From Candidatus Hodarchaeum mangrovi (GTDB lineage Archaea > Asgardarchaeota > Heimdallarchaeia > Hodarchaeales > Hodarchaeaceae): 41,147 bases of DNA. The stretch covers positions 1 to 41,147 of the forward strand of contig JAEOUE010000206.1 in the NCBI GenBank assembly GCA_016839515.1, written 5' to 3'. The position numbers and the translations under genes are program-made. The notes beneath the pieces were generated by a model. That model was given only the letters and a program-made list of their open reading frames with translations. It did not search any database and had not been told where the DNA came from. Positions 10,121 to 41,147 of this stretch are shown piece after piece (positions within the stretch are counted from its first letter, which is position 1; each line of letters opens with the position of its first letter).

Positions 10121-13100
10121 ATTATTTATAGAAAACAAGAGAATAATGTCTTTATTCTCATTAGTTTTCTACTCCTCCTGATAATACTACTTCAACCAAT
10201 AACTCAAATAAATTTTTTAGCTGAATCTAAGTCTCCTAGATTTATAATTGATCAAAAAGTCCAATTTCTAAGGAATTATGACCTTTTATTTTTTCAAGAT
10301 CACATAAAAATAGCTGATTGTAAAACTGATTCCTCTACCCTACATGATCAGATTATGCACGAAAAACAGTATAATTCTTCATCTTATCTCAGAGCTGGTA
10401 TTTCATCCAATATTTGGAGTCAACCATCTTATAGTTATCGGAAAGTTATTACAATCAATTCTTCTAAAATAAATGCTGATTTAGAAAACTTTCCAGTACT
10501 TATTGTACTATTTGATGATTCTTTACGTTATCATACACAAGCAGATGGGGATGATATCATATTTGTTGACCAAAACGATAATATTTTAGCTCATGAACTT
10601 GAATATTATGATGTTACTTTTAACTCTACTCATGCTCATTTGATTGCTTGGGTTTGTCTTCCAAAATTATCTAGTCAAAATGATACATCTTTTTTTATGT
10701 ATTATGGAAATCCTAATGCTGCTAATCTTGAAAATCCAAATAATGTATGGGACAGATATTATAGAGCTGTTTGGCATTTAAGTGAAAGTGGAGATGGGAG
10801 TATAAATGATTTTATTGATAGTACAATTTATAATAATCATGGCCAAGGGAACGGAGGAATACCTACACAAATCGATGGTATAATTGATTCAGCACAAGTC
10901 TTCAATAGTACAAATGAAGAGTATATTTCCATTCCAAATTCTATTAGTTTACAAATTCTCCAACATTTAACGATTGAAGCTTGGGTAAAAAATACTGGTC
11001 CAAGTGGAGCTTATATGGGAATTGCAGGAAAATTAGATGATACAGATGATAATGGTTATGCATTAGTTAGACATTCTGATAATAAGTTCAAATTTTGGGT
11101 AGGGGATGGAACTATGACAAGTGCTGATAGTGATACAACTTTTACAGATACTAATTGGCATCATGTGGTTGGAGTAATTGATAATGGTATCAATTACCTT
11201 TACGTGGATGGTAAATTACAAATAGATACCGATGATAATACTTTGGTAGATAGCGGAAGTATAGGACATATTGGTAGGCAATATTATAATTATAATGACC
11301 GATTTTGGAATGGTCTTATTGATGAGGTTAGAATTTCAAATGTCTCACGATCTGCAGATTGGCTCACCACGGAGTATAATAACTATTATCAACCTTATTC
11401 ATTCTATTCTATTGGTTTTCAAGAAATTTATAACGACTGGGGAGCACCTGCATTTGAATATAAGAAAGAAATTGTCATTAATCATGAAAAAGTACACGCA
11501 GACCTTTATGATTTTCCTATGTTACTAAGTATCTATGATACTGATCTAAGGATCCATACACAGGCAGATGGAGATGACATTTTGTTTTTAGATGAATTTA
11601 ATCAAAAATTAGACCATGAGATTGAGTTATTTGATTATATTAACGCAACCCATGCTTATATACGAATGTGGATTCGCATTCCCCTGCTTTCAAGCACAAC
11701 TGACAAGAAAATCACTATGTATTATGGGAATCCTACATTTGAAAGTATCGAGAATTCTGCTGGTGTATGGATGAATAATTATGCGGGTGTTTGGCATTTA
11801 GGTCCTAGTTTGCAGGATTCTACCTCATCAGGTATCAATGGAACAAAACATGGAACAACGGATGAAACTGCTGTAATTGGATTAGGACAAAAATTTGATG
11901 GTATTGATGATTATATTCAATTAGGAGTATGGGACCCTAAAATAGGATCAGGGAACTATACTATATCAGCTTGGATTCAACTTGATAATGCTTTTAATAC
12001 TAGCTCTAGTGAATCTATGCCTATTTTTGGTCACTATTATAATTCTTCATATAATATGGCGTTTACTTTTGCAGGACAGGATAATTCTCACGGTAGTAAT
12101 GGGATACTATATTGTAAAACTGAAGGTTATACTTGGTATGGCAACTACGACTATATTGACAGTATTACTTCATCTTGGGCCGCATCAACATGGTTTTATC
12201 TTGTATGTTCTGTTGATCAAGATAATAGCATTGGCACAATTTATATTAATGGTATAGGCGAAGGCTCTATGAGTAACACAGGTACACCAACTTTCGGTTC
12301 ATTTGGAAATTATTCAATTGGTCGAATTGACCTAGATCAGACCCCAAGTGAGACTCTAAAATTTTTTGAAGGAATAATTGACGAACTACGCCTTTCAAAA
12401 AGAGTTTTAGCAGAAGGATGGGTAATAACTGAATATGAAAATCAACTAAATCCACAAAGTTTTTATTCAATCAACCTTCAAGAACTTAGAGATCTAAATA
12501 CTACTAAAATATCGGAAATGATTATTGATACTAATGTATATGATGCAACAGATGAGTATAATCCTGGACCTAATGTAGTTTTTATTAATGATAGTCATGG
12601 ATATGCATTTTTCCAAAAAACAAATGGTGGCATATCTGAAATTGTTTATTATAAAACCACTGACAATGGTTTCAGCTGGAATGGACCAATAAATATAGAT
12701 TGTGGTCCTCCTATATATCGTTTCAGAAGTTTTTCCTGCTGGTATGATCGTTGGACTCCAGGAAATTATGGAACAAAGATTCACTTTATAGCAAATTCTA
12801 TTGATTATGATGAAATGGTATATAATAGTTTAGACACAAAAAATGATGAGACAGGTGGAAATTGGCAACGAGTATTAGACTCAGGAGGAGCTCATAATGC
12901 ACCTGATGGGGGTGGTACAGTTACGATATCAACAGAAACATATCGATTTTGTGCTTCTTGGATGACAAATGGGCCTCAATTCGCTAAATATGATACTAGT
13001 TTTCATGATATTACTCCCTTATATTCTATTCTAGATGACGATGATGATCATGGTCAGCTTCTTCCTTTGAGTAATGGTGACATTCTTTGTATTTATGAAG

Positions 13101-16100
13101 ATGTAACAGCCAATGAACTTTATTCATTTGTATATCATGAGTCCTTAGATGCATGGGACAACAACCCTACCTTTTTAGCTACAATTACAACAGGAACAGA
13201 AACACCTGAGGACGATTACAATAATAATGCAAACTGGGGTGCTGTACTAGATCCAAATACCTTCAATATTTATTTAGTTTTTAATAACGATGTATTTAAT
13301 GCAACAGGGGATTTAGAAACGTGGATTTTTTATGATAGTAATCGAACTTGGAGTCATCGTTCAAATGTAGTTACAAATGTAGGTATAATGGGAGATGAAG
13401 TGAAACCAGCCTTTGATCCTTATTCAGATACACTTTTTGCTATTTATATTATTGGAAATGATATTTTTGTCAAAAATTCAACCGATGGTGGACGGACATG
13501 GGGAGAAGAGATTGAAGTTAGTATTGCATCCGAATCTTGGATTGTTCTTCGAACAAATTTTCTTTCAATTGATAAAATTTTTGCAATCTATTTTGACGAT
13601 GTAAATGATGATGTTTATGGAGCAATTGTTGTTGATTTGGAACATAAACTAGATAATGCAACCATTCAGGTAAATGTTCTAGATTTAGATAACAAATTAG
13701 TTGAGAATGCGCAAATAACGTTAACTAATTCTCAAAATAGCTCTCTTACTTGGACCAAAAACACAACTTTTCAGGGGATGGCTATTTTTACTAATCTCAC
13801 ATTTAATTATTATAATTTAACAGTGAAATACAAATCATCAATTAATGATTCACTTGCATTTCTTGAAGTTTTTAGTTATTCTGATTTTCAGATTACTCCC
13901 TATTTTGAATATACTATAAGAATTGCTGAATATTCTGATGAGACACCACCTATAATCCAAAATATACATTTTGAAAATCAATCATTAATATTCAATAATG
14001 TTTCTACCTTTTTTGCTGATGTTTGGGATGATAGTAGTTCCATTGTGGTTAAACTAAATCTTACTGTTACAAATATTTCAAATGGTTTCATTTTCATTCA
14101 AGGTAATTTCACCATGCAACATCTATCTTCAAATACTTATTATAATAAGACTGCTTTGGATTCTCTATTGGAAAGGAATGTAGAGGTAATTTACAATATT
14201 ATCGCAATTGATATTGCAAATAATTCATTCTCATCATCATATTACTTTGTGTACTTAGGGGATAATTTTGCTCCTATTATTGTTGATTATAATGCTATTG
14301 ATTTTAAAAATGGCACAGTGGAATTTTATACAAATGTTACTGATAATATGAGTTCAATTCAGGATCCAGTCATAATTCAGATTGATGGAGAATTGTTTAG
14401 TATGCATAGAAATGAATCTGGATTCTGGGTCTATCGAACATTTGCACAATATGGTATTAGTTTAAATTATTCGATTTATTCAGTCAAGGATATAATAGGA
14501 AACGAAAATGGTTCCAAACTTTATACATTAACCCCTTCACATCGAATCATTATTCCTGCTGACTTGGAAGCCCCTATTATTATAGATATAGGGCATACGT
14601 TTAATTCACATGATAATGGCTTTGTTGATTTCTTTGTTTCTATTGAGGACCAAAACAATTACCAAAGCGGAGTTAATACCAGTAGTATCCTAATATTTTT
14701 TTCAGAAGATGGTGTTAATAGTACCTATTCTATGGTTGAATTTGAAGATTTATATTATTTTAGAAAGCAATTCGAGTTTAATATAACAGTAATTTATTGG
14801 ATTTCTGCAGCAGATCTTGCAGGTAACATATTTATTGGACTAATCCAAGGGCCGTATATTATGCGGGATGTTATTGATCCAATAGTCTCTTATTGGAATG
14901 TAGATCAAGGAAATGGTACAATTGATTTTTTTGCAGAAGTAATCGATTGGCCTTTCAATACTACTTCTGTTTTTTTAGTTTTCACTCAAGATTACTTTGG
15001 AGAATGGACTAATCTTTCAATGAGTAAAAAAACAAATACTTCCTTTCATATACGAGTACCATCCCTAGATTATCATCAGAAAAATGTCTGGTTTTATATT
15101 TGTGCTGTTGATGAATATGGAAACTGGAATAATAATGGGATATATCAAACTGCTAATATTCTACTAGAAGATTCTATACAACCAGTCATTTTTTTAACTG
15201 TTGAAAATTCTACAACAAATGATTGCGAAATAACAGTCTTTTCATATGCTACTGACTCTTTTGGAGATAATTTTTATGTTAATAATACATTCTGGATAAA
15301 ATTTCACTTTTCAAATTATTCGATCACACAAGAAATGATTTATGATACTTTTTATCGCTACTATTACAAGTACACATTTTCATTTAATGAAAGAGTCGAG
15401 ATTCTAGTATGGGTTGAAGATAACGCACATAATGTTGGGATGATAAATAAGACAATAACAATTGTGGATCTTACCCCACCTCGCATTGATTCCTATGGAA
15501 TAGACAATCATCAAAATGGGAATCTCACAATTTGGGCTCTTATTATAGAAAGTGAAAATGGAAGTGGTCTTCTTGATAATGACTCAGCAGTTTTATTAAA
15601 CTTCATTTATACTTCTGCAAAGACTGTAACAATGAGCTGGAATGGATCAGGGAATTATTTTAGCTGTACTCTTCAGGATTTTTTCCCTGGGCAAGCTTTT
15701 ACTTATAATATAACAGCTTTTGATAAAATGGGAAATAGTCAGAGTACTACATGGAATCCTTATTATGTAAAGGATAATACTGCTCCTTTTTGTTCAGATT
15801 ATGGAGTAAAGTATGAATATTGTAATCATACAGCAATTTCATTGTTGTTTTGGGCAGAAGCTTATGATTCTTATGGTTCAATCAAGAATTTAACCTTAAA
15901 TTTATATAATAATAACCTTAGTCAAATCTTAGAATTATTTTCAAATGGAACACATTATATTAAAAAAGCAGAAATAGGATGTAATCAAAGCTATAGTTTT
16001 TATTTAACTGTATTTGATGGTGAGTTAAATTCCCACACAGTATATTCTACTGAACTCAAAACCCTAGATTTCTGTTCGACTGAAATAATCGATTATGATA

Positions 16101-17719
16101 TAGAATACATTTACTCAAATATGACTATTGGGACTGTTCGTTTATGGTTGCTAGTTTTTAACCCTTTTAACGATCATGAGGTTTACATTAGTATCTGGAA
16201 TTATACATCCGGAATAATTCTGAAAGATAGAATCCTGATGGTTTCAAACGGAACTCATTTAATTTTTGATCTAAAAATCCCTTATAACTTTCTTTTCAAT
16301 TATTTAATTGATGTAAATGACCCAGGAGAAACAACAGGATATTATATTTTAGAGAATATTTCTGGTACTCATCGAATGCTAGATATTTGGCCTCCGAGTA
16401 TCAATGAAGTAGGTATATGGAAAATAAACGATACTTCAATACTTATTTGGGCTAATGTAACCGATGAAGGATCAGGAGTTTTTAATGTATACGCGTATAT
16501 TGAATTTCTGGAGCAAGATAAAATTGTTGGATTTGGCTCTACAATCCAAGCTAAAAAAACTCTAATGGAATTTAACCAGACCCATTACATCTCTTATTTA
16601 GTTTTTACGAAACCTTCTACATTGATATGGTACATCGAGGCATCTGACAACGTAAATCTTCATATAAACAGTATTTCTAAAACATTTGAGTTCCAATTTG
16701 AAATGGGAAATCCTATTCAATTTTCAAGTATTCCTCTTGAAATGATTATTGTTGCTATAATAGTAGCTTTATGTGGATTTATTCTTCTCCTAAGTATTTC
16801 AAAAACCTATAAAAAACGAAAAATAAAAGAAATGCAACATATTAATTTACTAGAGGAAAAATTAAAGTCAATACTTGATGTGTATATGGTTTTAGTTACC
16901 ATAGGGTCAGGATTACCTGTATATTCAATAAATAATTTTATTTATCGATCAACGAGAACAATTCAGAGTGAATTAAGTGGTCTCTCGGTGGGAATTGATA
17001 CATTTTTAGAATCATTCCAATCAGATTTCATTAGTTATCTTTTAGAGCCAACTCCCAACACTGAAGTAAATAATCTATCAGATAATGTTCGATTAAGTGT
17101 CATAGATAAAAATAAGTTTAAAGTTTTAATTATTTCCTCAATAAGTTTCAAAATATTTATTTTTATGAAGGAAGTACCTTTACAATTCATGAAAACTACT
17201 TTTAGAAAGATTATTCTTTTATTAGAAGAAAAAATTACCTTGAATCAACTAGGAGTTATCGACGAGTCACTCATTACTCCAGTTGTGATGGAAATTATTC
17301 AACAATTTTTTCCAATAAATTTACTTTCTCCATTTAAGGTCAATATAAATCGATTAATAGATATTGAAAAGGAAATAGAATTAGGTAAAATGAAAAGCCT
17401 CTCTAAATCATCTCTAAACGCTCTTAAACGACTGATTACTATAAAATTTAGTCATGAAGCTCGCTCAATAAAAGAGAATGATCAGATAGACCTATATAAC
17501 ACACTTTTAAAAGCAGGTCGATTTAATGAAGAAGTACCCTTTTTATACAATGAAGCACTTGAGCTATTGAAAAAAGTTTTAAAAATTCGATGTGAAGAAA
17601 TCTATGAGATTCTTTGGTTAGGAAGTTTACCATCAATGAATCTATTTCTTCCCTACAAATTAACTGAAGATATTGACCATATGGATTCTTTAAATGCAGA
17701 AAGGGAACAAGATGGCTAA
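10121..17719 (+). CDS. Giant single-pass surface protein: 2x(DUF2341+LamG), Asp-box propeller region, Ig-like repeats, TM helix, ~300-aa cytoplasmic domain (start uncertain; track start 10355)
   Basis: Two tandem 'YRK.I.IN...DL.NFPVL...QADGDDI.F...MYYGNP...VWHL...IDE.R.S...W..TEY.N' modules; Asp-boxes TTDNGFSW and STDGGRTW; repeated D..(A/P)P.I boundaries; TM IIVAIIVALCGFILLLSI followed by KKRKIK. Frame is open upstream to 10109 and encodes a signal-peptide-like stretch. Confidence 0.85.
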   Translation: MIYRKQENNVFILISFLLLLIILLQPITQINFLAESKSPRFIIDQKVQFLRNYDLLFFQDHIKIADCKTDSSTLHDQIMHEKQYNSSSYLRAGISSNIWSQPSYSYRKVITINSSKINADLENFPVLIVLFDDSLRYHTQADGDDIIFVDQNDNILAHELEYYDVTFNSTHAHLIAWVCLPKLSSQNDTSFFMYYGNPNAANLENPNNVWDRYYRAVWHLSESGDGSINDFIDSTIYNNHGQGNGGIPTQIDGIIDSAQVFNSTNEEYISIPNSISLQILQHLTIEAWVKNTGPSGAYMGIAGKLDDTDDNGYALVRHSDNKFKFWVGDGTMTSADSDTTFTDTNWHHVVGVIDNGINYLYVDGKLQIDTDDNTLVDSGSIGHIGRQYYNYNDRFWNGLIDEVRISNVSRSADWLTTEYNNYYQPYSFYSIGFQEIYNDWGAPAFEYKKEIVINHEKVHADLYDFPMLLSIYDTDLRIHTQADGDDILFLDEFNQKLDHEIELFDYINATHAYIRMWIRIPLLSSTTDKKITMYYGNPTFESIENSAGVWMNNYAGVWHLGPSLQDSTSSGINGTKHGTTDETAVIGLGQKFDGIDDYIQLGVWDPKIGSGNYTISAWIQLDNAFNTSSSESMPIFGHYYNSSYNMAFTFAGQDNSHGSNGILYCKTEGYTWYGNYDYIDSITSSWAASTWFYLVCSVDQDNSIGTIYINGIGEGSMSNTGTPTFGSFGNYSIGRIDLDQTPSETLKFFEGIIDELRLSKRVLAEGWVITEYENQLNPQSFYSINLQELRDLNTTKISEMIIDTNVYDATDEYNPGPNVVFINDSHGYAFFQKTNGGISEIVYYKTTDNGFSWNGPINIDCGPPIYRFRSFSCWYDRWTPGNYGTKIHFIANSIDYDEMVYNSLDTKNDETGGNWQRVLDSGGAHNAPDGGGTVTISTETYRFCASWMTNGPQFAKYDTSFHDITPLYSILDDDDDHGQLLPLSNGDILCIYEDVTANELYSFVYHESLDAWDNNPTFLATITTGTETPEDDYNNNANWGAVLDPNTFNIYLVFNNDVFNATGDLETWIFYDSNRTWSHRSNVVTNVGIMGDEVKPAFDPYSDTLFAIYIIGNDIFVKNSTDGGRTWGEEIEVSIASESWIVLRTNFLSIDKIFAIYFDDVNDDVYGAIVVDLEHKLDNATIQVNVLDLDNKLVENAQITLTNSQNSSLTWTKNTTFQGMAIFTNLTFNYYNLTVKYKSSINDSLAFLEVFSYSDFQITPYFEYTIRIAEYSDETPPIIQNIHFENQSLIFNNVSTFFADVWDDSSSIVVKLNLTVTNISNGFIFIQGNFTMQHLSSNTYYNKTALDSLLERNVEVIYNIIAIDIANNSFSSSYYFVYLGDNFAPIIVDYNAIDFKNGTVEFYTNVTDNMSSIQDPVIIQIDGELFSMHRNESGFWVYRTFAQYGISLNYSIYSVKDIIGNENGSKLYTLTPSHRIIIPADLEAPIIIDIGHTFNSHDNGFVDFFVSIEDQNNYQSGVNTSSILIFFSEDGVNSTYSMVEFEDLYYFRKQFEFNITVIYWISAADLAGNIFIGLIQGPYIMRDVIDPIVSYWNVDQGNGTIDFFAEVIDWPFNTTSVFLVFTQDYFGEWTNLSMSKKTNTSFHIRVPSLDYHQKNVWFYICAVDEYGNWNNNGIYQTANILLEDSIQPVIFLTVENSTTNDCEITVFSYATDSFGDNFYVNNTFWIKFHFSNYSITQEMIYDTFYRYYYKYTFSFNERVEILVWVEDNAHNVGMINKTITIVDLTPPRIDSYGIDNHQNGNLTIWALIIESENGSGLLDNDSAVLLNFIYTSAKTVTMSWNGSGNYFSCTLQDFFPGQAFTYNITAFDKMGNSQSTTWNPYYVKDNTAPFCSDYGVKYEYCNHTAISLLFWAEAYDSYGSIKNLTLNLYNNNLSQILELFSNGTHYIKKAEIGCNQSYSFYLTVFDGELNSHTVYSTELKTLDFCSTEIIDYDIEYIYSNMTIGTVRLWLLVFNPFNDHEVYISIWNYTSGIILKDRILMVSNGTHLIFDLKIPYNFLFNYLIDVNDPGETTGYYILENISGTHRMLDIWPPSINEVGIWKINDTSILIWANVTDEGSGVFNVYAYIEFLEQDKIVGFGSTIQAKKTLMEFNQTHYISYLVFTKPSTLIWYIEASDNVNLHINSISKTFEFQFEMGNPIQFSSIPLEMIIVAIIVALCGFILLLSISKTYKKRKIKEMQHINLLEEKLKSILDVYMVLVTIGSGLPVYSINNFIYRSTRTIQSELSGLSVGIDTFLESFQSDFISYLLEPTPNTEVNNLSDNVRLSVIDKNKFKVLIISSISFKIFIFMKEVPLQFMKTTFRKIILLLEEKITLNQLGVIDESLITPVVMEIIQQFFPINLLSPFKVNINRLIDIEKEIELGKMKSLSKSSLNALKRLITIKFSHEARSIKENDQIDLYNTLLKAGRFNEEVPFLYNEALELLKKVLKIRCEEIYEILWLGSLPSMNLFLPYKLTEDIDHMDSLNAEREQDG

Positions 17720-30223: not shown

Positions 30224-30952
30224 TTAATCAACTAAAATACGTTCTTTGCCAGTAACCATACCCCGGAGTCGATTTCTATTTGCTGGAATAATAGCAAAAT
30301 AAAAATGAATTATAGTGGTTCCCAAGAAATAAAGATAAACTAAGAAATGAATAAATCGGATATCAAGGAAGAAGACCTCAAATGGAATTAAGAAAACCAA
30401 CAATAGACTCAAAAACATTGTTGATCCAGGGGAAACTTCTTCAGCGAGAGCAATCCCGGTAACACCCATGATAAAAATAGCCATTAAATTTGTGAGGGAT
30501 AATAGCTTTTGTGCAGGATGATATTTCATGATATATTCTTTCTTTTCAACAATATAATAATCGTAATGTGGATATTTTTCATCAGGAAGAATATTTAGAG
30601 CACAAAGAAGAATGATCCCTAGGTCTAAAAAATCTCGAGGAGTGGGAATTAAAGAATGAACTTCCTTTCCGAGAATAACAACAGATGTAAAGAAAATTAA
30701 GTCCCATACTCCGATAAATATTCCAAACATAAAATGTATTGACCGTGTGAAGATGTAATCACCGATGAAATACATTTGTAGAACAAGCTCTAATCCTGTA
30801 AAGAAGAATAAAAGCATTGTGAACACATGTACCCAATGATGCAATCTTTGAGCATTATTATATCTCTGAGCTATTATTACATTTGATGGAGAGGCTGCTT
30901 TTGACGAATCTTGTTTCTTCTCTTTTGCAGAATTAACATTAATTGTAGTCAT
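30224..30952 (-). CDS. Di-haem cytochrome b (FdnI/HyaC-like)
   Basis: Four TM helices with His in 'QRLHHWVH', 'RSIHF', 'RFIHF', 'IIHFY'; 'KYHPAQKL'; 'LRGMVTG'. Confidence 0.85.
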   Translation of the reverse strand: MTTINVNSAKEKKQDSSKAASPSNVIIAQRYNNAQRLHHWVHVFTMLLFFFTGLELVLQMYFIGDYIFTRSIHFMFGIFIGVWDLIFFTSVVILGKEVHSLIPTPRDFLDLGIILLCALNILPDEKYPHYDYYIVEKKEYIMKYHPAQKLLSLTNLMAIFIMGVTGIALAEEVSPGSTMFLSLLLVFLIPFEVFFLDIRFIHFLVYLYFLGTTIIHFYFAIIPANRNRLRGMVTGKERILVD

Positions 30953-30988: not shown

Positions 30989-31891
30989 TTATTTTTTCGT
31001 TGAAAATGTTTGGTTCCATCTTTCTTTAAGAGTTGGAGGTTTGAATGTAGCTGTTGTTACTCGATTATAATCGTGCTGTATCGGATTGGTGATTACACGA
31101 CGCATTAAATGGAAAATCACGAACCCTAAGACTCCGATTGGTGCTACTCCAATCAAAAGAAACTTCAATTGACTTAGATCTTGTACTTGGGGAATCTCGG
31201 GTATAATAACAGGATTAGTACTATTAGTATTATTATTATTTTCTTCTCCAACAGGATCAGTTCTTACTAGAAGATAATAAAATGTATGTTTTTTGATATG
31301 ACTGCCTTTTGAAGCAAATTGCATTATATTTATGCTTCCATTCTTAAATACTATATCGTAACCTTCAGTATCTTGTGTATTGAAGGGTCTGATTACTTCT
31401 ATGTAAACTTGGTTTTCGACAACAACACTTTCAAAATTCAGATCGTTTTTGTTATCATCAGATGGAATTACAGTTCCTACAAACTTTACATCTTTTGCTG
31501 TAACTTCAGATGTCTCTTGATTAATGTAAAATGTCCAACCATCATTTAAGTTCTTCATACAAGTAGAAGGATCAGGTTCAAACTCTACAGAGATCCAAGC
31601 TACATCAACTGAGCTAACAAATAAAGAAAATAAATGTGTTTCATTATTAGCAAACTTTACATAACCCCCATCTTTAAATTCAGATATATTTTGATATGTA
31701 TAAACAGATTCCCACTCAGATTCGATTTGACCGTCTGTTAAATTTAATTGAGAGATAACTGGAGCAATAAAACCATCCATTGTCTCTGAAGCTACAGCAG
31801 GACCACCTTGAATTAATGAAAAACCCATAAAACTAAGAAGAATAAGGCTAATCCCAGAAAATAGAGAACTAATAACTTTCTTTTTTCTCAT
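30989..31891 (-). CDS. Secreted, membrane-anchored DOMON-like (putative haem b-binding) protein
   Basis: Signal peptide; 'DG.I..EW', 'WIS..F...CM..LNDGW', 'RPFNTQD..YDI.F', late His 'SHIKKH'; Asn-rich linker; C-terminal TM. Confidence 0.65.
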   Translation of the reverse strand: MRKKKVISSLFSGISLILLSFMGFSLIQGGPAVASETMDGFIAPVISQLNLTDGQIESEWESVYTYQNISEFKDGGYVKFANNETHLFSLFVSSVDVAWISVEFEPDPSTCMKNLNDGWTFYINQETSEVTAKDVKFVGTVIPSDDNKNDLNFESVVVENQVYIEVIRPFNTQDTEGYDIVFKNGSINIMQFASKGSHIKKHTFYYLLVRTDPVGEENNNNTNSTNPVIIPEIPQVQDLSQLKFLLIGVAPIGVLGFVIFHLMRRVITNPIQHDYNRVTTATFKPPTLKERWNQTFSTKK

Positions 31892-32607: not shown

Positions 32608-33273
32608 TTAATCCTTCTTTACCCTATAAAGACAACACTCATCCCCATCTCTTATACATTTTGTTTTTTCGCACTTTTTGCCAATTAATTCCCTCATAAT
32701 CGTTTCATCAACTTTACACACTAAAGGATTCTCTTTTACTACCCCGTAAACAAGGCAATTGAAGTTTTGAATGTCATAAGAATCAGCTGTTTCTATTAAA
32801 GAAGGGTATTTTCCATATTCTCTCAAAATCTCTGTTACTGCTTTAATTCTTTCATCTAACGTTGCTTCTTCTGGATTTTTCCCTAAAATCTCTTTTAGAT
32901 AGGGCCGTATTTCTTCAGCTATTTCTTTACCCACATCTTCAAGTACATCCTGTGTAAGTTCGACTCCAAAGCGATTCTTTAGCTGAGTCAGCATTTTAAC
33001 AGTAAAGTCAACATAACTTTTTGGAAATTTCTCTAGGGCACTCTCATGCAAAGCGTAAACCATCGCAGGACGTCCAGTGGTACTTTTTCTTTGAGAACGT
33101 GTAACAAGACCCTCTTTTTCTAGGTTAACTAAATATTGTCTGGCAGCATTTATACTGATCTCAAGTTCATCCGCAATATCTTTTACAAGAACAGCTTTAT
33201 CAGGGGCATTTCTGTTAACTAAGAGAAATTGCAAAATTTTTTGACGAGAAGATAAAAACTCTTCACTTTCCAT
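32608..33273 (-). CDS. HTH transcriptional regulator with Cys-containing sensor domain (SufR/COG2345-like)
   Basis: 'IADELEISINAARQYL..LEKEGLV...TGRPA.VY.L'; C-terminal 'NCL', 'VC..D', 'CI..GD.CC.Y'. Confidence 0.85.
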   Translation of the reverse strand: MESEEFLSSRQKILQFLLVNRNAPDKAVLVKDIADELEISINAARQYLVNLEKEGLVTRSQRKSTTGRPAMVYALHESALEKFPKSYVDFTVKMLTQLKNRFGVELTQDVLEDVGKEIAEEIRPYLKEILGKNPEEATLDERIKAVTEILREYGKYPSLIETADSYDIQNFNCLVYGVVKENPLVCKVDETIMRELIGKKCEKTKCIRDGDECCLYRVKKD

Positions 33274-33717: not shown

Positions 33718-35025
33718 ATGAACGACCAAGAAGAAATTCTTCTCGTACAGAGTCGGTGGAATAGCAAACGGTTTTTCTTATTTTACTGGTTTGTAATTGC
33801 GTTTTTAGGAACAGGGTTTGCAATTGGACTAGGAACATCAGTATTAAGTCCTAAATATTCAATCTCTAGTACAGCTGCTCATCCCACCATTGACGAACCA
33901 TGGCATCCAGAAGACTGTACTCTCTGTCACTCTGAACAGGTAGAAAAATGGAATGAAACTGGCCATTCAGTAGCTGCTATTAAGGTTAATTCTACTCATG
34001 TAGAAATTGCTGGATCACGCAATGTTACACAGGAACAATTTGATAGTTCTTGTGGTCATTGTATGGCAACTGGATGGGATAATAGTACTGGAAGTGTAAC
34101 ATATTGGGATTATGGTGTAACATGTGCTTCATGTCATGTGACACCAGGTGAAACAGATCTCACAGCAGAAAACTGTGGACAATGTCACACGGGTTCAAAC
34201 CACCCTCAATACCCCGATTACAATATGAGTGCTCATGCTAGGTCTTATGATGACTTACTAGCATCAGGTCATGCATCAGATAGTTGTTTACATTGTATGA
34301 GTGGGCAAGGAACTTATACGGAAGGTTTGTCGCTTAATGACACTTTTTTGACTAGTGTTTCTTGTGCAACCTGCCATGATCCTCATGATGCAACTAATGA
34401 ACTACAGCTTCGAAAAGATGATATTACGGAACTCTGTGGTGAATGTCATGGAACATCATCACGGCACACAACTTATGAAATGTTCACTGACCCCAAGAAC
34501 AAACATAATTCATTAGATTGTACTGATTGTCATGGTTATGAATTACACGATAGTGAGGCATCTGTTAATCATACTTGGGTTGTTACAATTGATTCTTGTG
34601 CACAATGTCATACTGATAACGTAACCCGTTGGGCTAAGATAGAAGAGATCCAAGGAGACATTAGCACCCTACTCTCTGAATATGAAACTCAACTTACAAA
34701 TGTAACAGCGAAATTCAATGAAGCCAATAATACCTTTGGTTTAACCAACCCAAATGTTAATGAGTCATATATCCTTATTAATGAAGCAAAGGCCCTTGTT
34801 ACATTCGTTCAAAGTGATCAAAGTCTTGGATTCCATAACCCCAGTTTAGCTGAAGAAAAGGTCAAATTAGCCTTACTCAAACTTGATGAAGCATATGAGA
34901 AAGCAGTTAATGCTAGTAATACAAAACCAGGTGGTTTAACTCCAGGTTTTGAATTAATTAGTATACTAACCTCTCTAGGTCTTTTAGGGATTGTTTTTCT
35001 GATCCGTAAGAAAAAACAACACTAA
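33718..35025 (+). CDS. Surface-anchored multihaem cytochrome c (7 CxxCH + 2 CxHCM) with c552-like helical C-terminus and PGF-type sorting signal
   Basis: CTLCH, CGHCM, CASCH, CGQCH, CLHCM, CATCH, CGECH, CTDCH, CAQCH; 'D.S.GFHNP'; 'TPGFE'+TM+RKKK; N-terminal hydrophobic helix. Confidence 0.93.
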   Translation: MNDQEEILLVQSRWNSKRFFLFYWFVIAFLGTGFAIGLGTSVLSPKYSISSTAAHPTIDEPWHPEDCTLCHSEQVEKWNETGHSVAAIKVNSTHVEIAGSRNVTQEQFDSSCGHCMATGWDNSTGSVTYWDYGVTCASCHVTPGETDLTAENCGQCHTGSNHPQYPDYNMSAHARSYDDLLASGHASDSCLHCMSGQGTYTEGLSLNDTFLTSVSCATCHDPHDATNELQLRKDDITELCGECHGTSSRHTTYEMFTDPKNKHNSLDCTDCHGYELHDSEASVNHTWVVTIDSCAQCHTDNVTRWAKIEEIQGDISTLLSEYETQLTNVTAKFNEANNTFGLTNPNVNESYILINEAKALVTFVQSDQSLGFHNPSLAEEKVKLALLKLDEAYEKAVNASNTKPGGLTPGFELISILTSLGLLGIVFLIRKKKQH

Positions 35026-35253: not shown

Positions 35254-37440
35254 ATGATTAAATCGATGATTAATGAGAATTATATTCACCAAAATATTAA
35301 ATTAATGATAAAATTGTTAGCAATTTCAATCTTAATTGTTTCAATAATTTTTCCATTAGTCTCTGTTGATCCAACAAACAATAAAGAGAGTCAAATTACT
35401 ATTAAAGATTCTCATAAAACAATATATTCTGACGGAATACCTTTTGAGATCTCTTTTAAAACAAGTTCTTCTAATCAGGCTCCCGATGAAAATCCTGAAG
35501 CTTATTTTACTAATTTTCTGCACTATTCCATTCTTGCAGCCAATGCATTGATAGACCATCTATACGATAATGAGAAGGGAGGATTTTTTCGGTCAGCTAA
35601 TGAACATTGGTTTGAAACCAGCATTGATTCAGACAAAAGGACTTATGATCAAGCCCATGCTATTCTTGGATTATTGAAACTGTCTGAGGCAGTTATTAAC
35701 GAGACCCAAAGCGAGTATGCATTGGAGATTGCAGAAAGAACTGGAAATTATCTAATAACTGAGTTGTATGATGCTGATTTTGGTGGTTTTTTTACTGGAA
35801 CTGCAGATAGATACAAAAGACCAGGCATTGAAGGTAAGGTTATTGAAGCCTTGATTGCGCTTTATAAATCCACTGGAAATTCCACATATCGAACAATAGC
35901 AGAAGAGACTTTTAATTTCATTAATACCTACGGATGGGATCAGATTGGAGGAGGATATTATTCTAAACTCTCACATGCAGGAGCTATAGCCTCCCCAAAT
36001 TTAGAAGATCTATATCAACCTGATTGTAAAAGAGTAGATTACAATGCATTAATGGGTTGTGCCATATTAGAGCTTTATAATTTGATTGGGGATTCAAGTT
36101 ATTTGGATCGAGCAGTTGAAATTTATAAATTGATGAATAATTCCTGTTTTAATAATGAAACAGGACTGTTTTACGGAGGATATGGGAGTAATGGAAATAT
36201 CGTAGACAGTGATTCCTCAGAACTTATTGTAAATACCTTTATGATAGAATTTTTAGTAAAATTATATAATATAACACAAGAAAATAATTATTTAGATTGT
36301 ATTACCTCATTAATTAAAAATTTGATATTTAATTATTGGGATGATAGATTTGGAGGGTTTTATTCAACCTATTGTTATTCTAATGAAGAAGATAAAGATC
36401 TAAAGAAATATACTGAAAGACAATTTTATGCTATTCGTGCTCTTGATGAAGTCTATAAATTGACAAATAATAACCTTTACTATAATCTGATCTTTGACAT
36501 GATGGAATTTCTCAATACAAATTTATATGATCAAGGTCATGAAGGATACATTCAATTATCGAATGAAAACGGAGACCCAGGTGACCCAACATGGAAAAGT
36601 AAATTTTCAGTTACACAAGCTCTAGCAATCTATGAATTATCAAATCTTTGGCTTTATAGTAAACCAGGAGTCCTTAATGCCATGTGGATTCCTTCATTAC
36701 CAAGACCTCAGGATCCTGTTATGATCTTGGCTGCAGCATTCGATTCTGATGGAGTTGCAGATGTTTTCTGTAATTATTCAATTGCAAACCAACCATATGC
36801 TTTAGTTGAAATGCAAAAGGATTCAAAAATTGGAAATATGTACAATGCTAGCTTTGATCCTCAACCAGAAGGAACGGGGATTAATTTTAATATCATAGTA
36901 AATGACACGTTGGGGAATATTGCCGTTCGAGGATCCTATTTTTTCATTTGGCAGTTTGACCTTTGGAGTCCCCATGTTGAGGTTCTCAGGATCGACCCTG
37001 GGTTAGAAGTTCCAGTCTATAAAGGGGTAAATATTACTGTAAGTGTTCATGACACTCCTGTACAGGGTTCAGTATCTAATGTGCGAATTTATTATCATCT
37101 GGAAGGCAAATCAGAGGATTCCAAAATTTTAACACAGACTGGTCTTCATATTTGGCAAGCTATTTTTAAAAATGGTTTTAATGTTCCTGGAACATATGCT
37201 TTTTACTTTGAAGCTATCGATGATCGCGGAAATTTTGGTTACACAAGTGTTGGCTATTTTTATGTCTTGGGAACTATAGAATCTATTCCATTTATTACAG
37301 TAATCGGAGGTCTCTTTTTTATACTTTTTATTGCCCCTACTGGATTTGCTTTGTTTAAAGAGTATCAAAAAAGAAATGCAAAAAAGAGTTTACGTAAAAT
37401 TAAGCATTCTAAACGAGTGAAACGGAGAAGGACAACTTAA
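35254..37440 (+). CDS. Membrane-anchored extracellular (alpha/alpha)6-barrel protein (AGE epimerase/GH76/YyaL-like) with two Ig-like domains
   Basis: Repeated '(L/W)YD...GGF(F/Y)' units, 'K.TYDQA', helical 'LY..TG...Y...A'; signal peptide; C-terminal TM plus basic tail. Confidence 0.75.
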   Translation: MIKSMINENYIHQNIKLMIKLLAISILIVSIIFPLVSVDPTNNKESQITIKDSHKTIYSDGIPFEISFKTSSSNQAPDENPEAYFTNFLHYSILAANALIDHLYDNEKGGFFRSANEHWFETSIDSDKRTYDQAHAILGLLKLSEAVINETQSEYALEIAERTGNYLITELYDADFGGFFTGTADRYKRPGIEGKVIEALIALYKSTGNSTYRTIAEETFNFINTYGWDQIGGGYYSKLSHAGAIASPNLEDLYQPDCKRVDYNALMGCAILELYNLIGDSSYLDRAVEIYKLMNNSCFNNETGLFYGGYGSNGNIVDSDSSELIVNTFMIEFLVKLYNITQENNYLDCITSLIKNLIFNYWDDRFGGFYSTYCYSNEEDKDLKKYTERQFYAIRALDEVYKLTNNNLYYNLIFDMMEFLNTNLYDQGHEGYIQLSNENGDPGDPTWKSKFSVTQALAIYELSNLWLYSKPGVLNAMWIPSLPRPQDPVMILAAAFDSDGVADVFCNYSIANQPYALVEMQKDSKIGNMYNASFDPQPEGTGINFNIIVNDTLGNIAVRGSYFFIWQFDLWSPHVEVLRIDPGLEVPVYKGVNITVSVHDTPVQGSVSNVRIYYHLEGKSEDSKILTQTGLHIWQAIFKNGFNVPGTYAFYFEAIDDRGNFGYTSVGYFYVLGTIESIPFITVIGGLFFILFIAPTGFALFKEYQKRNAKKSLRKIKHSKRVKRRRTT

Positions 37441-37479: not shown

Positions 37480-39714
37480 ATGTTTGATATTGGATTTGGT
37501 ATTGCAGTTATTGATTTAGGAATGTTATTACTCATAATTGCATTAATTACATTTCTAGTAGATGTGTTTTTAGTGCTATTAGGTGAGTATATAGATAACT
37601 GGGAACAATATTCAGAGATTGCTTTTTCGATTGGGTGCTGTGCTCTTATTGTTGCATTTATTTATTTCTTTAATGCAGTTGTTTCAGCAGATTATAGCTT
37701 TGTTTATGTCACCGATACAGTAAATAATGATATGGATTTCTTTATGCGTGTATCAGCAGTTTGGTCAGGTCAAGCAGGATCCTATTTCTTTTGGGCTTTT
37801 CTTACTGTTATTATCTATCTAATTTTCAGAACGTTATTCCGTGATTATGCTCATGAGAGAATATTTTGGCGATCATTTGTAATATTAGCCCTTCAAACAG
37901 CAATCTTTACCTCCTTGACCATTCTAAGTGATCCTTTTAGTCTTGAAACTGAACCAATTATTGATGGAATAGGTCTCAATCCACTATTAATGAATATTTG
38001 GAATTTAATCCACCCACCAATAATTTTTATTGGATATGCACTTTGTTTGATACCTTTTACAATTGGAATTGCCAGGCTTACAGTTCTTGAAGAAGGAAAT
38101 ATCCCAGATTTTGATGGAAAAGAATTTTTAGATAACTTTGTAGAATTTTTTGTCTCATTAGCATGGCTTGTTTTAAGTTCAGGTATCATTATCGGAGGAT
38201 ATTGGGCTTATGTCACTCTTGGTTGGGGTGGTTTTTGGGCTTGGGATCCTATTGAAACAGCTTCTTTGATACCTTGGTTGTTCCTGACATTATATTATCA
38301 TGGAAAACCATTTCATAAGAAAAGTATTTTTCTAGTAAATTATATTCTTAGCATGTCGTATATATCTACATTATTCGCTACTTATCTTACAAGGAGTGGT
38401 ATCGTCTCAAGTGTTCATGCATTCAAACCATCAAATACCCTGGAAAAATTCCTCTCAGGTTTTATTCCCCCTGATACCTTTGTAATGAGTATTATATTAC
38501 GTATTATCCCAGATGAAAAAATCCTATTCTTATTCATTGTTTTGATTACTTCTTTCCTTATTCCTCATATAATTGGATTAACTCGAGGAGACCTAAAACA
38601 TCTTCCGATCTCATTATCGAGAGAGGATTTCCAAGTTAATAAACATAAAAATACTACTCTAAAAATATCATTTATTACATTCTTTATCGGAATTTATGTT
38701 ATTATACTAGGATTGCTCGCTCCCGTCATCTACGATATTTTAGGGTATTTAATAAATTTAAATTCAATTGGATTTAATTCTGGAATAACAGTTGGTTCTA
38801 TATTCTATAATACTGTTCTCACCATTTTTGGAGGTATAATGCTTCTTTCGCAATTCTTCTGTACATTCTATCCCAGACTTGAAATAAAAAAGAAGTTTAT
38901 ATTAATGCTTGGAGGAATGTTAACTGGTGTTATTTTTGCTATTAGTAGAATCCTTTACTCAAACGGATTTTTAATTCAAGTTCTCGGAGAAAAAAATCCC
39001 CTCCTTGAATTTCTGAATATCTTCTGGACTACTAGTGATAAAGCAAATTTAGTTCTTCCTCTTCTCTTTTTAGGAATAGTTGGATTAATTATAGAATTTT
39101 TCCAAGTTTCTTTTTCAGTTGATAAAAATTTTATTAAAAAGACATCACAAATAGTTTTACATCTTTCTTTCCTTTTAATTCTTGTAGGTGCACTCTTAAG
39201 TGCAAACAGAACTCTAACGACTGAGTTGGAAGTACAACCAGGGGAATTTCAGATTTCGGGGACTTCTCTTACCATAAAAGTTACAGATTTAGATAAAACA
39301 GTTCTTTCTTCAGGGGTTCACGCAGTTGAATATGATACTGAGTTTTTCCTGACTTCAGGATCCCGTGTAGTAGGCTTTGGAATAAGTCGATTAGCTTTAG
39401 ATAATGTTGGACGCTTTGATTATGAGGTAACAATAATTAGTGATCTTTTTTCGGATATCTATATTGTAACTGCAGCAGCTTATGAATCACCTATTTCTGG
39501 GCTTTTTGTTGCCTCTCGATTGCAAATAAAAATAATCCCATATATTAATATATTATGGGCAGGTTGTTTCTTACTACATTTTGCCATTATTCCTCTGAAT
39601 ATTGGTAGATTCATTTCATTAAAACGATCAATATCCCGTGAAGAAATACTTAATTCAGAGGAAGCTATAATACCCTCCCCTGGAATAGAAACTCCAATAA
39701 TCAAAGAAACTTAA
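37480..39714 (+). CDS. ccmF: Cytochrome c maturation haem lyase CcmF/NrfE-type
   Basis: 'W.GQ.GS..FW', 'G.GLNPLL...IHPP', WWD motif 'WAYVTLGWGGFWAWDPIETASLIPWL', 'TRSG..SVHAF', 'P.INILW.G'. Confidence 0.92.
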   Translation: MFDIGFGIAVIDLGMLLLIIALITFLVDVFLVLLGEYIDNWEQYSEIAFSIGCCALIVAFIYFFNAVVSADYSFVYVTDTVNNDMDFFMRVSAVWSGQAGSYFFWAFLTVIIYLIFRTLFRDYAHERIFWRSFVILALQTAIFTSLTILSDPFSLETEPIIDGIGLNPLLMNIWNLIHPPIIFIGYALCLIPFTIGIARLTVLEEGNIPDFDGKEFLDNFVEFFVSLAWLVLSSGIIIGGYWAYVTLGWGGFWAWDPIETASLIPWLFLTLYYHGKPFHKKSIFLVNYILSMSYISTLFATYLTRSGIVSSVHAFKPSNTLEKFLSGFIPPDTFVMSIILRIIPDEKILFLFIVLITSFLIPHIIGLTRGDLKHLPISLSREDFQVNKHKNTTLKISFITFFIGIYVIILGLLAPVIYDILGYLINLNSIGFNSGITVGSIFYNTVLTIFGGIMLLSQFFCTFYPRLEIKKKFILMLGGMLTGVIFAISRILYSNGFLIQVLGEKNPLLEFLNIFWTTSDKANLVLPLLFLGIVGLIIEFFQVSFSVDKNFIKKTSQIVLHLSFLLILVGALLSANRTLTTELEVQPGEFQISGTSLTIKVTDLDKTVLSSGVHAVEYDTEFFLTSGSRVVGFGISRLALDNVGRFDYEVTIISDLFSDIYIVTAAAYESPISGLFVASRLQIKIIPYINILWAGCFLLHFAIIPLNIGRFISLKRSISREEILNSEEAIIPSPGIETPIIKET

Positions 39715-39748
39715 CAAAAATAATATAATAAGAAAGAACTTTTAATGC

Positions 39749-40459
39749 TTACCATGGCAATTCATTTCTCTGCCAATCCAAATACCGCCCTGTATCATCC
39801 ATTGAGAGGGAATCAATGACTTTAATCATACCCTGAATTGATTCTTGAGGAGATAATGGTGCACCGATTCCACCTAAATCGGTTCTGACGTGACCAGGAT
39901 GTAATGGTATAACAATAATATTTTTTTCCTTTAATTCTAGAGCCATTAGTTTAGAAAACATATTAAGCGCAGTTTTACTCGCACAATAGCTATATCGGAA
40001 CACAAAGGTTTTTTTGGAAAGAGAAGCCAAACCAGAGGTAATATTAATTATCCGTGGATTTTTTCCCTTCTCAATCAAATCAATGAAAAGTTCACTCAAT
40101 AACACAGGGGCAATACTATTTACTCTAAATACCTGTTCAATATCTTCAGAATACATTTCACCTAGTGTATAACTATCTTTATCCCCTCCAGATCGGATTC
40201 CAGCATTGTTTATGAAAATATCAATAGCTTTGCATTTTTTTGATACTGAAAGGAAAAATTCTTTCCTTGATTGATCCTTTGATACATCTAGAGAGAATAA
40301 TTTCAGTTTATCAAGATATTTTTTGTTTAATGCATGAAGCTTTGAAGCATTTTCTAGATCACGAGCTGTTGCAATAACATGATCACCTCGTGCGAGGTAC
40401 TGAGTAACAAATTCGAGTCCTAATCCTTTACTGGCACCAGTAATCAATACTTGACTCAT
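39749..40459 (-). CDS. Short-chain dehydrogenase/reductase (CsgA-like)
   Basis: TGASKGLG, INNAG, YCASK, LHPGHVRTD. Confidence 0.93.
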   Translation of the reverse strand: MSQVLITGASKGLGLEFVTQYLARGDHVIATARDLENASKLHALNKKYLDKLKLFSLDVSKDQSRKEFFLSVSKKCKAIDIFINNAGIRSGGDKDSYTLGEMYSEDIEQVFRVNSIAPVLLSELFIDLIEKGKNPRIINITSGLASLSKKTFVFRYSYCASKTALNMFSKLMALELKEKNIIVIPLHPGHVRTDLGGIGAPLSPQESIQGMIKVIDSLSMDDTGRYLDWQRNELPW

Positions 40460-40785
40460 TTTGAAGCATTCTCCATTTTATTAGTTTTCGTCGTCTTCTT
40501 TAATATAAAAACTGTTTAGGAGCTAAGCTGACTAATTATCACTGAACTAATTTCTCCAAAGGTGAATAAATACTACTATTTTTACAGATGAATTTCTTCA
40601 TATTAAAACAGTTTTAAGAAAATAAATTCTAGAATATGAGAAAAAAATCTTATTGTTATATAATAGAAAAAATAAATATTTTAAAGATTTAATAACACTG
40701 AATTGCTATGAAAGAGAAGAAACCTGGTGATCCTAAATATATTACTCCAAATAAAATAAAGCAATTAAAAAATATGAGAGTGATA

Positions 40786-41147
40786 ATGGAAAAAAAATGG
40801 ATTATTCCGAATAAACTTGCAGCATCAGGTACACCAACAAACAATAAAGACATCCAAGATTTACATAAGTGGGGAATCAAAGCTATTGTAACAGTCACAG
40901 AATTTTCCTTAATGGAAAGAGGATTCATTGAGAAAGAAATTCTTACTAAATTAAACATTGAATACCTCCATCTTAATATTGCAGATGATTATGGCCCAAC
41001 ACACGATCAGGCAAAAAGATTTATCCAGTTTACAAAACGAATGGAAGATGAACAGAGGCCTTTACTTATTCATTGTATGGGGGGGATTGGACGGACGGGA
41101 ACATTTTTACTTTTGTATTTTATATCCCATGGGTACTCTTTAGTAGA
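40786..41147 (+). CDS. Dual-specificity protein phosphatase (DUSP23-like), runs off window end
   Basis: Manual translation MEKKWIIPNKLAASGTP...GIKAIVTVTE...IADDYGP...LIHCMGGIGRTGT (HCx5R); frame open from ATG 40708; absent from the ORF track. Confidence 0.9.
   Translation, partial: MEKKWIIPNKLAASGTPTNNKDIQDLHKWGIKAIVTVTEFSLMERGFIEKEILTKLNIEYLHLNIADDYGPTHDQAKRFIQFTKRMEDEQRPLLIHCMGGIGRTGTFLLLYFISHGYSLV

Follow-up and report, generated by a model that had tools for sequence, protein, structure and literature searches.

The window analysed here, the whole 41,147-nucleotide stretch at positions 1 to 41,147 of contig JAEOUE010000206.1 of Candidatus Hodarchaeum mangrovi (forward strand), carries the gene of a multihaem cytochrome c, P0001, in which two of nine haem motifs read CxHCM instead of CxxCH. 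Judged by its sequence, the protein belongs to the OcwA/OmhA branch of the NrfA-c554-octahaem superfamily, here in an Asgard archaeon. The two CxHCM motifs occupy exactly the two reactive haem positions of the fold, since their alignment columns are those of OcwA haems 2 and 5. This assignment, of the protein to the OcwA family and of the motifs to sites 2 and 5, is regarded as virtually certain. Haem is probably bound at both CxHCM sites, and the balance tips slightly towards a haem attached there with Met replacing His as the proximal ligand. The initial annotation had counted seven CxxCH motifs plus CGHCM and CLHCM, and this was confirmed by translation, a motif scan and the DNA letters themselves. 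The features of the protein were as follows.

33718..35025, + strand: open reading frame (ORF) of the nine-site multihaem cytochrome c, 435 residues, P0001, OcwA family; translation gives a single open frame
33763..33843, + strand: N-terminal hydrophobic helix, residues 16-42, putative signal or membrane anchor (AlphaFold2 model and sequence)
33916..33930, + strand: haem 1 site CTLCH, residues 67-71; C67, C70 and H71 invariant in the alignment
34051..34065, + strand: site 2 CGHCM, residues 112-116; pairs with OcwA haem 2 CAGCH
34123..34137, + strand: haem 3 site CASCH, residues 136-140 (motif scan, alignment)
34174..34188, + strand: haem 4 site CGQCH, residues 153-157 (motif scan, alignment)
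34201..34203, + strand: His162; pairs in the alignment with OcwA H282, which lies non-bonding over the distal face of haem 2
34285..34299, + strand: site 5 CLHCM, residues 190-194; pairs with OcwA haem 5 CLKCH, the equivalent of NrfA haem 1
34363..34377, + strand: haem 6 site CATCH, residues 216-220 (motif scan, alignment)
34435..34449, + strand: haem 7 site CGECH, residues 240-244 (motif scan, alignment)
34465..34467, + strand: His250; pairs in the alignment with OcwA H381, which lies non-bonding over the distal face of haem 5
34519..34533, + strand: haem 8 site CTDCH, residues 268-272 (motif scan, alignment)
34597..34611, + strand: haem 9 site CAQCH, residues 294-298 (motif scan, alignment)
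34618..34920, + strand: C-terminal three-helix bundle as in NrfA and OcwA, residues 301-401; modelled helices 301-340, 345-367 and 375-401; PF02335 match at 246-396
34939..35016, + strand: putative C-terminal sorting or anchor segment, residues 408-433, Heimdall-CTERM/PGF-CTERM-like; profile scores just below the cut-off

The codons are tgt ggt cat tgt atg for CGHCM (34051-34065) and tgt tta cat tgt atg for CLHCM (34285-34299). A His codon (CAY) and the Met codon (ATG) differ at all three positions, and a sequencing or assembly error in canonical CxxCH motifs would need three base changes at each of two sites. Contigs from three DNA runs of three studies lay over the motifs (X3, 33718-34748; X4, 33718-34495; X6, 33718-34200 and 34238-34404), and no difference was listed inside either one. 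CGHCM and CLHCM were both present in all nine closest listed relatives (P0002-P0009 and L005, 58-80% identity), while farther relatives read CxxCH in the same alignment columns, which indicates a correspondence of motifs and not an error. Nothing was found in favour of an error, which the motifs of the relatives and the contigs of the three studies together refute; its probability is negligible. The earlier argument that independent errors were unlikely was thus borne out. A chance origin was excluded as well. The pattern C.HCM occurred twice among 6325 mechanically called ORFs of at least 60 residues (1,364,871 residues in all) from the organism's own 4.0-Mb genome, both times in P0001. A metatranscriptome run (X19) gave three short contigs at 34049-34093 and 34390-34760; most of the gene had no RNA cover, and transcription is not thereby shown.

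Each CxHCM motif is the middle haem site of one of two tandem units, a pattern that had been proposed before and is visible in the P0001 sequence. The two halves (residues 60-145 and 146-225) aligned weakly, with 13 of 33 residues identical and an E value of 0.005 for that single comparison. The idea of tandem units is better supported by relatives with up to nine repeated CxxCH / CxHCM / CxxCH modules, described below.

A profile of 38 relatives found OcwA of Thermincola potens (6I5B) as its best match with an E value of 3e-45, followed by OmhA (6QVM), MccA, NrfA and the octahaem nitrite reductases. The AlphaFold2 model of P0001 (predicted local distance difference test score, pLDDT, 82.6) contains the N-terminal helix at 16-42, the haem domain, the bundle at 301-401 and a C-terminal helix at 412-434. 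In a Foldseek search with this model 6I5B ranked first (E 7e-12), and VIA-align superimposed the two with a Z score of 24.7 and a root mean square deviation of 2.9 Å over 312 residues at 32% identity. Both the HMMER alignment against 6I5B and a MAFFT alignment including the OcwA construct P0220 paired CGHCM with CAGCH (haem 2) and CLHCM with CLKCH (haem 5). All nine motif columns were occupied by C..C. in conserved order, seven of them as CxxCH and two as CxHCM. Pfam matches on P0001 were Cytochrome_C554 at 67-140, Cytochrom_C552/NrfA at 246-396, Paired_CXXCH_1 and, below threshold, PGF-CTERM.

PMC6703420 describes haems 1, 3, 4, 6, 7 and 8 of OcwA as bis-His and haem 9 as His/Met. Only haems 2 and 5, the putative active-site haems, are five-coordinate in that account: their iron has a proximal His, and the distal side is open below the pairs His-His 281/282 and 380/381. 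The same paper presents haem 2 as the counterpart of the active haem in c554 and MccA, and lays haems 5-9 on the haem core of NrfA, with haem 5 at the active site. Six non-motif His residues are invariant between P0001 and OcwA (H83, H173, H185, H223, H285 and H373), which equals the number of bis-His haems in OcwA; matched by alignment, they are the putative distal ligands. At sites 2 and 5 P0001 has Met116 and Met194 in place of the proximal His of the two five-coordinate haems, and the residue before the second Cys (x2) is His instead of the G or K of OcwA. H162 and H250 align with OcwA H282 and H381, whose partners H281 and H380 are N and R in P0001. H282 and H381 are conserved across all OcwA/OmhA sequences according to PMC9250108. 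As H162 and H250 are kept, both pockets look intact. The core of the original proposal, that these are real non-canonical haem sites and possibly catalytic ones, was supported by this homology with the columns of OcwA haems 2 and 5.

The likeness to OcwA covers the nine motif positions in the same order, the fold, the six distal His, one His per pocket and the three-helix bundle, and P0001 is probably surface-exposed too. The two differ in their distal pairs, which are His-His in OcwA but N-H and R-H in P0001, and P0001 is without the long insertions of OcwA. OcwA comes from a Gram-positive bacterium, whereas P0001 is archaeal, with an N-terminal anchor and a CTERM-type tail. The profiles for this tail scored 23.3 bits against a cut-off of 24 (NF045529, Heimdall-CTERM), 19.4 against 19.9 (NF033507, Loki-CTERM) and 17.2 against 18.8 (PF18204, PGF-CTERM). 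Judged by the helices and domains of its model, P0001 is probably a membrane-anchored, outward-facing nine-haem cytochrome of the cell surface. N284-H285 is invariant in the 38-sequence alignment and is followed by T, giving an N-x-T sequon (residues 284-286, window 34567-34575). The middle residue of this sequon, H285, is the conserved His that is also invariant with OcwA, and P0001 carries many further NxS/T sequons.

Site 5 is, by alignment, the position of the CxxCK motif of NrfA: haem 1 of NrfA and of the octahaem nitrite reductases lies at the same structural site. CxxCK is a known precedent for swapping the motif His at exactly this haem, and it is served by the dedicated NrfEFG lyase. 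NrfA differs in having Lys where P0001 has Met and in its five haems, and it has a catalytic Tyr/His/Arg set. Several relatives are named 'ammonia-forming nitrite reductase c552' at NCBI, yet the defining CxxCK is absent. The PF02335 match on P0001 scored 40.7 bits (cut-off 24.1) and joined residues 246-396 to positions 225-380 of the 438 in the profile, that is, to the C-terminal part only. P0001 was therefore rejected as an NrfA proper, as it has CLHCM and not CxxCK at the equivalent site and matches PF02335 over the C-terminal part alone. OmhA, an undecahaem S-layer cytochrome of Carboxydothermus ferrireducens, was the second-best match (E 4.8e-25, Z 22.1). It has both five-coordinate haems, but carries CLECH at site 5 and two additional N-terminal haems. 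Cytochrome c554 and MccA have a five-coordinate haem 2 as the counterpart of site 2, but with CxxCH.

A word-index search returned 151 relatives at E <=0.001. Where the sources give names, these are Hodarchaeales, Heimdall-, Thor-, Odin-, Hermodarchaeota or Promethearchaeota, and the proteins are annotated 'multiheme c-type cytochrome' or 'nitrite reductase c552'. An exhaustive search found 474 representatives at E <=0.001 and 30 at <=1e-30. The family was carried by 52 of 400 genomes of the window's phylum; the figures were 16 of 21 for its own genus and 35 of 89 for three other families. A distant branch (P0064-P0082) sits in records titled Bathyarchaeia.

In the alignment of 38 sequences, whose members were picked by rank and not by motif, the fifth motif residue was an invariant His at the seven canonical sites and varied only at sites 2 and 5. 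C190 and C193 were invariant. For a census, 279 sequences were aligned to the profile, and, with identical rows removed, those in which 6 or more of the 7 canonical motifs were in place made up the 171 rows counted. Site 5 read CxxCM in 97 rows, CxxCH in 57, CxxCV in 5, CxxCK in 3, CxxCQ in 2 and L, R or N at the fifth place in 1 each, and the motif was missing in 4. Site 2 read CxxCH in 104 rows, CxxCM in 23, xxCCH in 16, xxCCM in 14, xxxCH in 4 and otherwise in 10. A FastTree phylogeny computed with both motifs masked required at least 8 changes between His and Met at site 5 and 2 at site 2.

The same exchange was seen within single polypeptides. Modular relatives repeat a three-haem module of about 95 residues whose middle motif differs from copy to copy: CAHCM eight times and CAKCM once in P0126, CAKCM six times and CAHCM twice in P0140, and CAKCM, CAKCH, CAHCM, CAKCH and CAHCM, in this order, in P0139. 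P0162 has CARCV four times, and CARCH also occurs among the middle motifs. The context of the module (N-T-[YF]-C-A-x-C-x-S-P) stays constant while the motif changes, and His and Met, and rarely Val, are thus interchangeable at one position. The giant relatives P0126 (1278 residues), P0132 (1622 residues), P0139, P0140 and P0162 have up to nine such modules in tandem, built as CxxCH, HH, CxHCM/CxKCM/CxKCH/CxRCV and CxxCH, and their C-terminal part resembles that of OcwA; CPECG repeats occur in some of them. Such proteins may act as long conduits for electrons outside the cell.

Further variants were noted in the family. In 36 relatives (P0025-P0060, L010-L014, L025-L027) site 2 reads G-C-C-H (21) or G-C-C-M (15), with no Cys within the 14 preceding residues, so that the first Cys is lost, x2 is Cys, and His and Met alternate at the fifth place; such a site may attach haem through one thioether, have a contracted motif or be dead. 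Site 1 is CTGSMCH or CMGSMCH (CX4CH) in P0016, P0017, P0019 and L016, and site 2 of P0016 is CMIECH (CX3CH), and thus variants of Cys spacing are also present. At two further loci, L044 (G397:C35, 15082-16374) and L053, site 5 is CVHCH in one relative, so that x2 and the fifth residue are both His, and CASCK in a distant homologue from a Thermoplasmata record. Lys, His and Met are therefore all present at this position in archaea.

The valine motifs bear on one alternative, in which the bound haem receives no ligand from the motif: Met, like the Val, Leu or Gln of some relatives, would only occupy the proximal side, and the pocket His (H162 or H250) would hold the iron from the opposite face. 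The 10 of 171 rows whose site-5 motif ends in V, Q, L, R or N and the four CARCV of P0162 fit this reading, as does a second pocket His in at least 45 of the 97 CxxCM rows (RH 29 plus HH 16; 25 further rows have gaps there). Met is nevertheless far commoner than these non-ligand residues (97 against 10 rows), and the known haem ligands H, M and K account for 157 of 171 rows. In OcwA, moreover, the pocket His leave the iron unbound. We consider this alternative quite unlikely.

The Met is accompanied by His at x2 in 90 of 97 CxxCM rows at site 5 and in 20 of 23 at site 2, raw counts that are inflated by kinship. With CxxCH, x2 was never His at these sites (0 of 57 and 0 of 104), and at each canonical site it was His in at most 1 of about 170 rows. 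When the coupling was counted in tree-based independent pairs, 4 and 2 well-supported pairs were obtained, in which x2 changed in the same direction or did not differ, and never in the opposite one (sign test not significant, p 0.125 or worse). The x2 His and the Met thus look like a functional unit, although independent events are few. In another alternative, the attached haem has the internal x2 His as its axial ligand, and the Met belongs only to the second sphere or binds the iron in one redox state (a His/Met switch); the co-occurrence and the lack of opposite cases among the independent pairs speak for this. Against it, Met is kept without the His in CLSCM (three Bathyarchaeia loci), CLTCM, CLRCM and CAKCM, the last in 6 of the 8 modules of P0140, and the coupling itself rests on 4 and 2 pairs with the p value given. 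In the AlphaFold2 model, residues 113-116 and 188-194 are helical like the canonical sites (pLDDT about 91-93). From helix geometry, i+4 would share the face of the two Cys and i+2 would point away from it. Of the two ligands named in the initial annotation, proximal Met is therefore favoured by the Met-only variants and the normal helical turn, which disfavour the internal His; the latter is improbable. Most likely the x2 His does not bind its own iron. Our guess is that it serves the lyase during haem attachment or tunes the pocket. As neither E. coli Ccm nor HCCS matures engineered CXXCM, it might supply the histidine that the lyase needs.

Haem may also be missing at sites 2 and 5, with the Cys pairs forming disulfides or a metal site and P0001 being a seven-haem cytochrome. 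Known lyases reject CXXCM (PMC4158909), OcwA haems 2 and 5 are terminal (PMC6703420), the site-5 motif is wholly lost in 4 of 171 relatives, and the side chains of C, H, C and M are good ligands for soft metals. However, the pocket His and all neighbouring ligand His are kept, and His and Met are repeatedly exchanged at the exact ligand position. Site 2, furthermore, loses its first Cys yet keeps Cys-His or Cys-Met in the xxCCH, xxCCM and xxxCH rows of the census, which fits a haem with a single thioether and not a disulfide. A protein without these two haems is accordingly judged unlikely.

Several observations weigh against a Met-ligated haem at these sites. Engineered CXXCM was not matured by E. 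coli Ccm, nor was the H19M variant of cytochrome c by HCCS (PMC4158909), which means that attachment here would need a lyase with a different tolerance. The engineered proteins (a double-Cys cytochrome b562 with E. coli Ccm and horse cytochrome c H19M with HCCS) have the same five-residue pattern as the P0001 motifs; they differ in being artificial and not matured, whereas in the natural motif x2 is nearly always His, and the gene is linked to an archaeal Ccm operon. OcwA haems 2 and 5 each form one end of the haem array (PMC6703420), and as the chain is not obviously broken without these terminal haems, its continuity is no argument for their retention. That the fifth residue is not always a ligand follows from P0162 and from the ten census rows in which site 5 ends in V, Q, L, R or N. 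The census was biased by the motif filter and by many close kin. Finally, CcmE, CcmC and CcmB were not found in the organism's own 91%-complete genome, either with profiles or by tblastn with the proteins of the closest relative (E 1e-3). Their genes are either on unassembled DNA or lost; if lost, the cytochrome could not be matured by the usual route.

The CxxCM finding has strong comparative support. Family, fold, site match, conservation, exchange of His and Met and linkage to a lyase gene were observed directly, and from the comparison we infer haem occupancy and Met ligation. Met as the axial ligand at the CxHCM sites is held to have a little better than an even chance. In the mechanism we propose, electrons would enter from the membrane, with a cytochrome b561-type protein (30224-30952) as the candidate donor, and run through the seven canonical haems. 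The seven CxxCH motifs and the six distal His would form the usual electron-transfer chain, and the CxHCM motifs would be the attachment sites of the terminal open-pocket haems 2 and 5, facing, as in OcwA, the substrate or an external acceptor. Both Cys of CxHCM would form thioether bonds and the following Met would serve as axial ligand instead of a proximal His, as the Lys of CxxCK does in NrfA at the equivalent of haem 5. By general haem chemistry the thioether, a softer ligand, should stabilise Fe(II), give a higher potential and lessen the proximal 'push'. With the pocket His (H162 or H250) bound, the result would be an ordinary high-potential His/Met haem; with it unbound, a rare five-coordinate Met haem. 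In the long modular relatives, where as many as nine of these sites follow one another, we lean slightly towards electron transfer, and not catalysis, as the role of the Met haems.

CxxCH is the motif by which haem c sites are identified, counted and annotated; the few natural exceptions accepted so far are CxxCK, a changed spacing of the Cys residues and sites with a single Cys. In the searchable literature no natural haem site of the CxxCM type was found, only engineered variants and unrelated papers on CxxC domains (supplements and subscription journals were outside its scope), and no paper on this Asgard cytochrome was found there. A term search for nrfA, nitrite and cytochrome c gave no mention in 10.1101/2024.07.04.601786 or PMC10307638. 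OcwA and OmhA are described as 'very poorly represented' in the database of a study of superfamily evolution (PMC9250108), and the word 'methionine' occurs 0 times in that paper, its supplements lying outside the term search. If Met ligation is true, CxxCM at the position of the NrfA CxxCK would bring a new proximal ligand into the chemistry of c-type haems, in Bathyarchaeia as well as in the lineage nearest to eukaryotes. For more than 100 environmental cytochromes now named 'nitrite reductase c552' or 'multiheme cytochrome' at NCBI, both the predicted number of haems and the redox landscape would change. It would also raise the question of how a System I lyase attaches haem without a motif histidine.

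A more far-reaching version is offered tentatively. CxHCM might be an undescribed natural motif for haem c, Met-ligated at the reactive sites, whose x2 His lets an archaeal System I lyase accept it. Its scope could possibly be the OcwA-type cytochromes of Asgard archaea and, as CxSCM, those of Bathyarchaeia, with haems that are five-coordinate or switch ligands. The lyase, on this still doubtful proposal, would be CcmF working with a CcmE of the CxxxY type on a motif that E. coli Ccm and HCCS reject. If this were so, motif and lyase would have co-evolved, and the haem chemistry would be one unseen in any characterised cytochrome c.

The cytochrome gene is the first of a three-gene cassette. 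Its neighbours in the window were the following.

30224..30952, - strand: cytochrome b561-type membrane protein, possible quinol-side partner; near the cytochrome in 2 of 12 loci
30989..31891, - strand: 300-residue membrane protein without a family match, possible quinol-side partner; near the cytochrome in 2 of 12 loci
32608..33273, - strand: divergent regulator with helix-turn-helix and MetOD1 domains; also upstream of the cytochrome in 2 of 12 loci (L035, L037)
35254..37440, + strand: 728-residue membrane-anchored protein, conserved second gene in the cassette; sugar 2-epimerase-fold (alpha/alpha)6 barrel, then beta-sandwich domains, then a transmembrane helix at the C-terminus
37480..39714, + strand: CcmF/NrfE-like haem lyase of 744 residues, third cassette gene; carries WGGFWAWD and aligns with Thermus CcmF 6ZMQ over residues 52-345

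The cytochrome, the 728-residue gene and the CcmF-like gene were adjacent in all twelve loci inspected and colinear in 11; these loci had been chosen for having both hits on one contig. Of the 67 family places in the 400 genomes of the phylum, 46 had a CcmF-like match no more than about 10 kb away on their contig (hand comparison), and many of the others sit at contig ends. Five genomes of the window's own genus have two copies of the cytochrome (G071-G075). A CcmF-like gene was found on the contig of each copy in G071, G072 and G074, but of only one copy in G073 and G075. In the Bathyarchaeia, CcmC and CcmF lay directly upstream of the CLSCM cytochrome in all 3 loci with enough upstream DNA, and CcmF was adjacent in 0 of 2 loci with CxxCH throughout, one of which had an upstream flank of only 2.8 kb; these tiny numbers are suggestive of a linkage between CLSCM and CcmF.

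The model of the 728-residue protein (pLDDT 79.1) has a sugar 2-epimerase-like barrel (Foldseek E 2e-21), and no usable match to it was found in the ESM Atlas. With transmembrane helices at both ends, it stands between the cytochrome and CcmF in 12 of 12 inspected Asgard loci, and it is absent in the Bathyarchaeia loci. Its possible roles are glycan work on the sequon-rich cytochrome, scaffolding or help in maturation.

Beyond CcmF, the operons of the closest relative (L035) and of L039 go on with a CcmE-like gene, CcmC, a small ORF, an ATP-binding cassette (ABC) ATPase (ccmA) and CcmB. The CcmE-like gene was at the Pfam threshold in both, and the L035 copy ends C-P-S-K-Y. CcmE of the CxxxY type is the archaeal variant of System I. 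The operon of the window, by comparison, ends with CcmF; in the stretch beyond it (39715-41147) a short-chain dehydrogenase/reductase gene follows on the opposite strand. When the CcmA of the closest relative was searched against the organism's own genome by tblastn, generic ABC ATPases of 27-29% identity were the only matches. No member of the ResB, CcmH or CcmE families exceeded its cut-off in this genome; a ResB-like stretch of 15 bits lies inside the CcmF-like ORF, and one DsbD_TM gene is present on another contig.

P0001 is the only ORF of its own genome with more than two CxxCH motifs, and the CcmF-like gene is the only PF01578 match above the cut-off. A conserved CcmF-like neighbour is compatible with the dedicated lyase considered in the initial annotation, but with one PF01578 gene and no second general lyase in the genome, the enzyme is linked to the cytochrome without being 'dedicated' in the sense of NrfE. 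A possible second Ccm gene on contig C179 (PF01578, 24.2 bits, below the cut-off) was rejected, as it is a COX3-like ORF in a haem-copper oxidase locus beside a DOMON protein. This locus (L004, 691-5309) contains COX1, COX2 and the COX3-like ORF of 484 residues, and is preceded by the ORF for the DOMON protein, which adjoins the COX3-like one in frame across one TGA. The organism accordingly has an oxygen reductase. For narG, nothing exceeded the cut-off in the profile search, and no link to nitrate respiration was drawn.

Two other ORFs of the window were noted. By far the largest, on the + strand at 10355-17719, encodes 2454 residues. The ORF at 40708-41145 is cut by the contig end; it matched the XopH phosphatase family weakly (39.8 bits, cut-off 500) and probably encodes a phosphatase-type domain.

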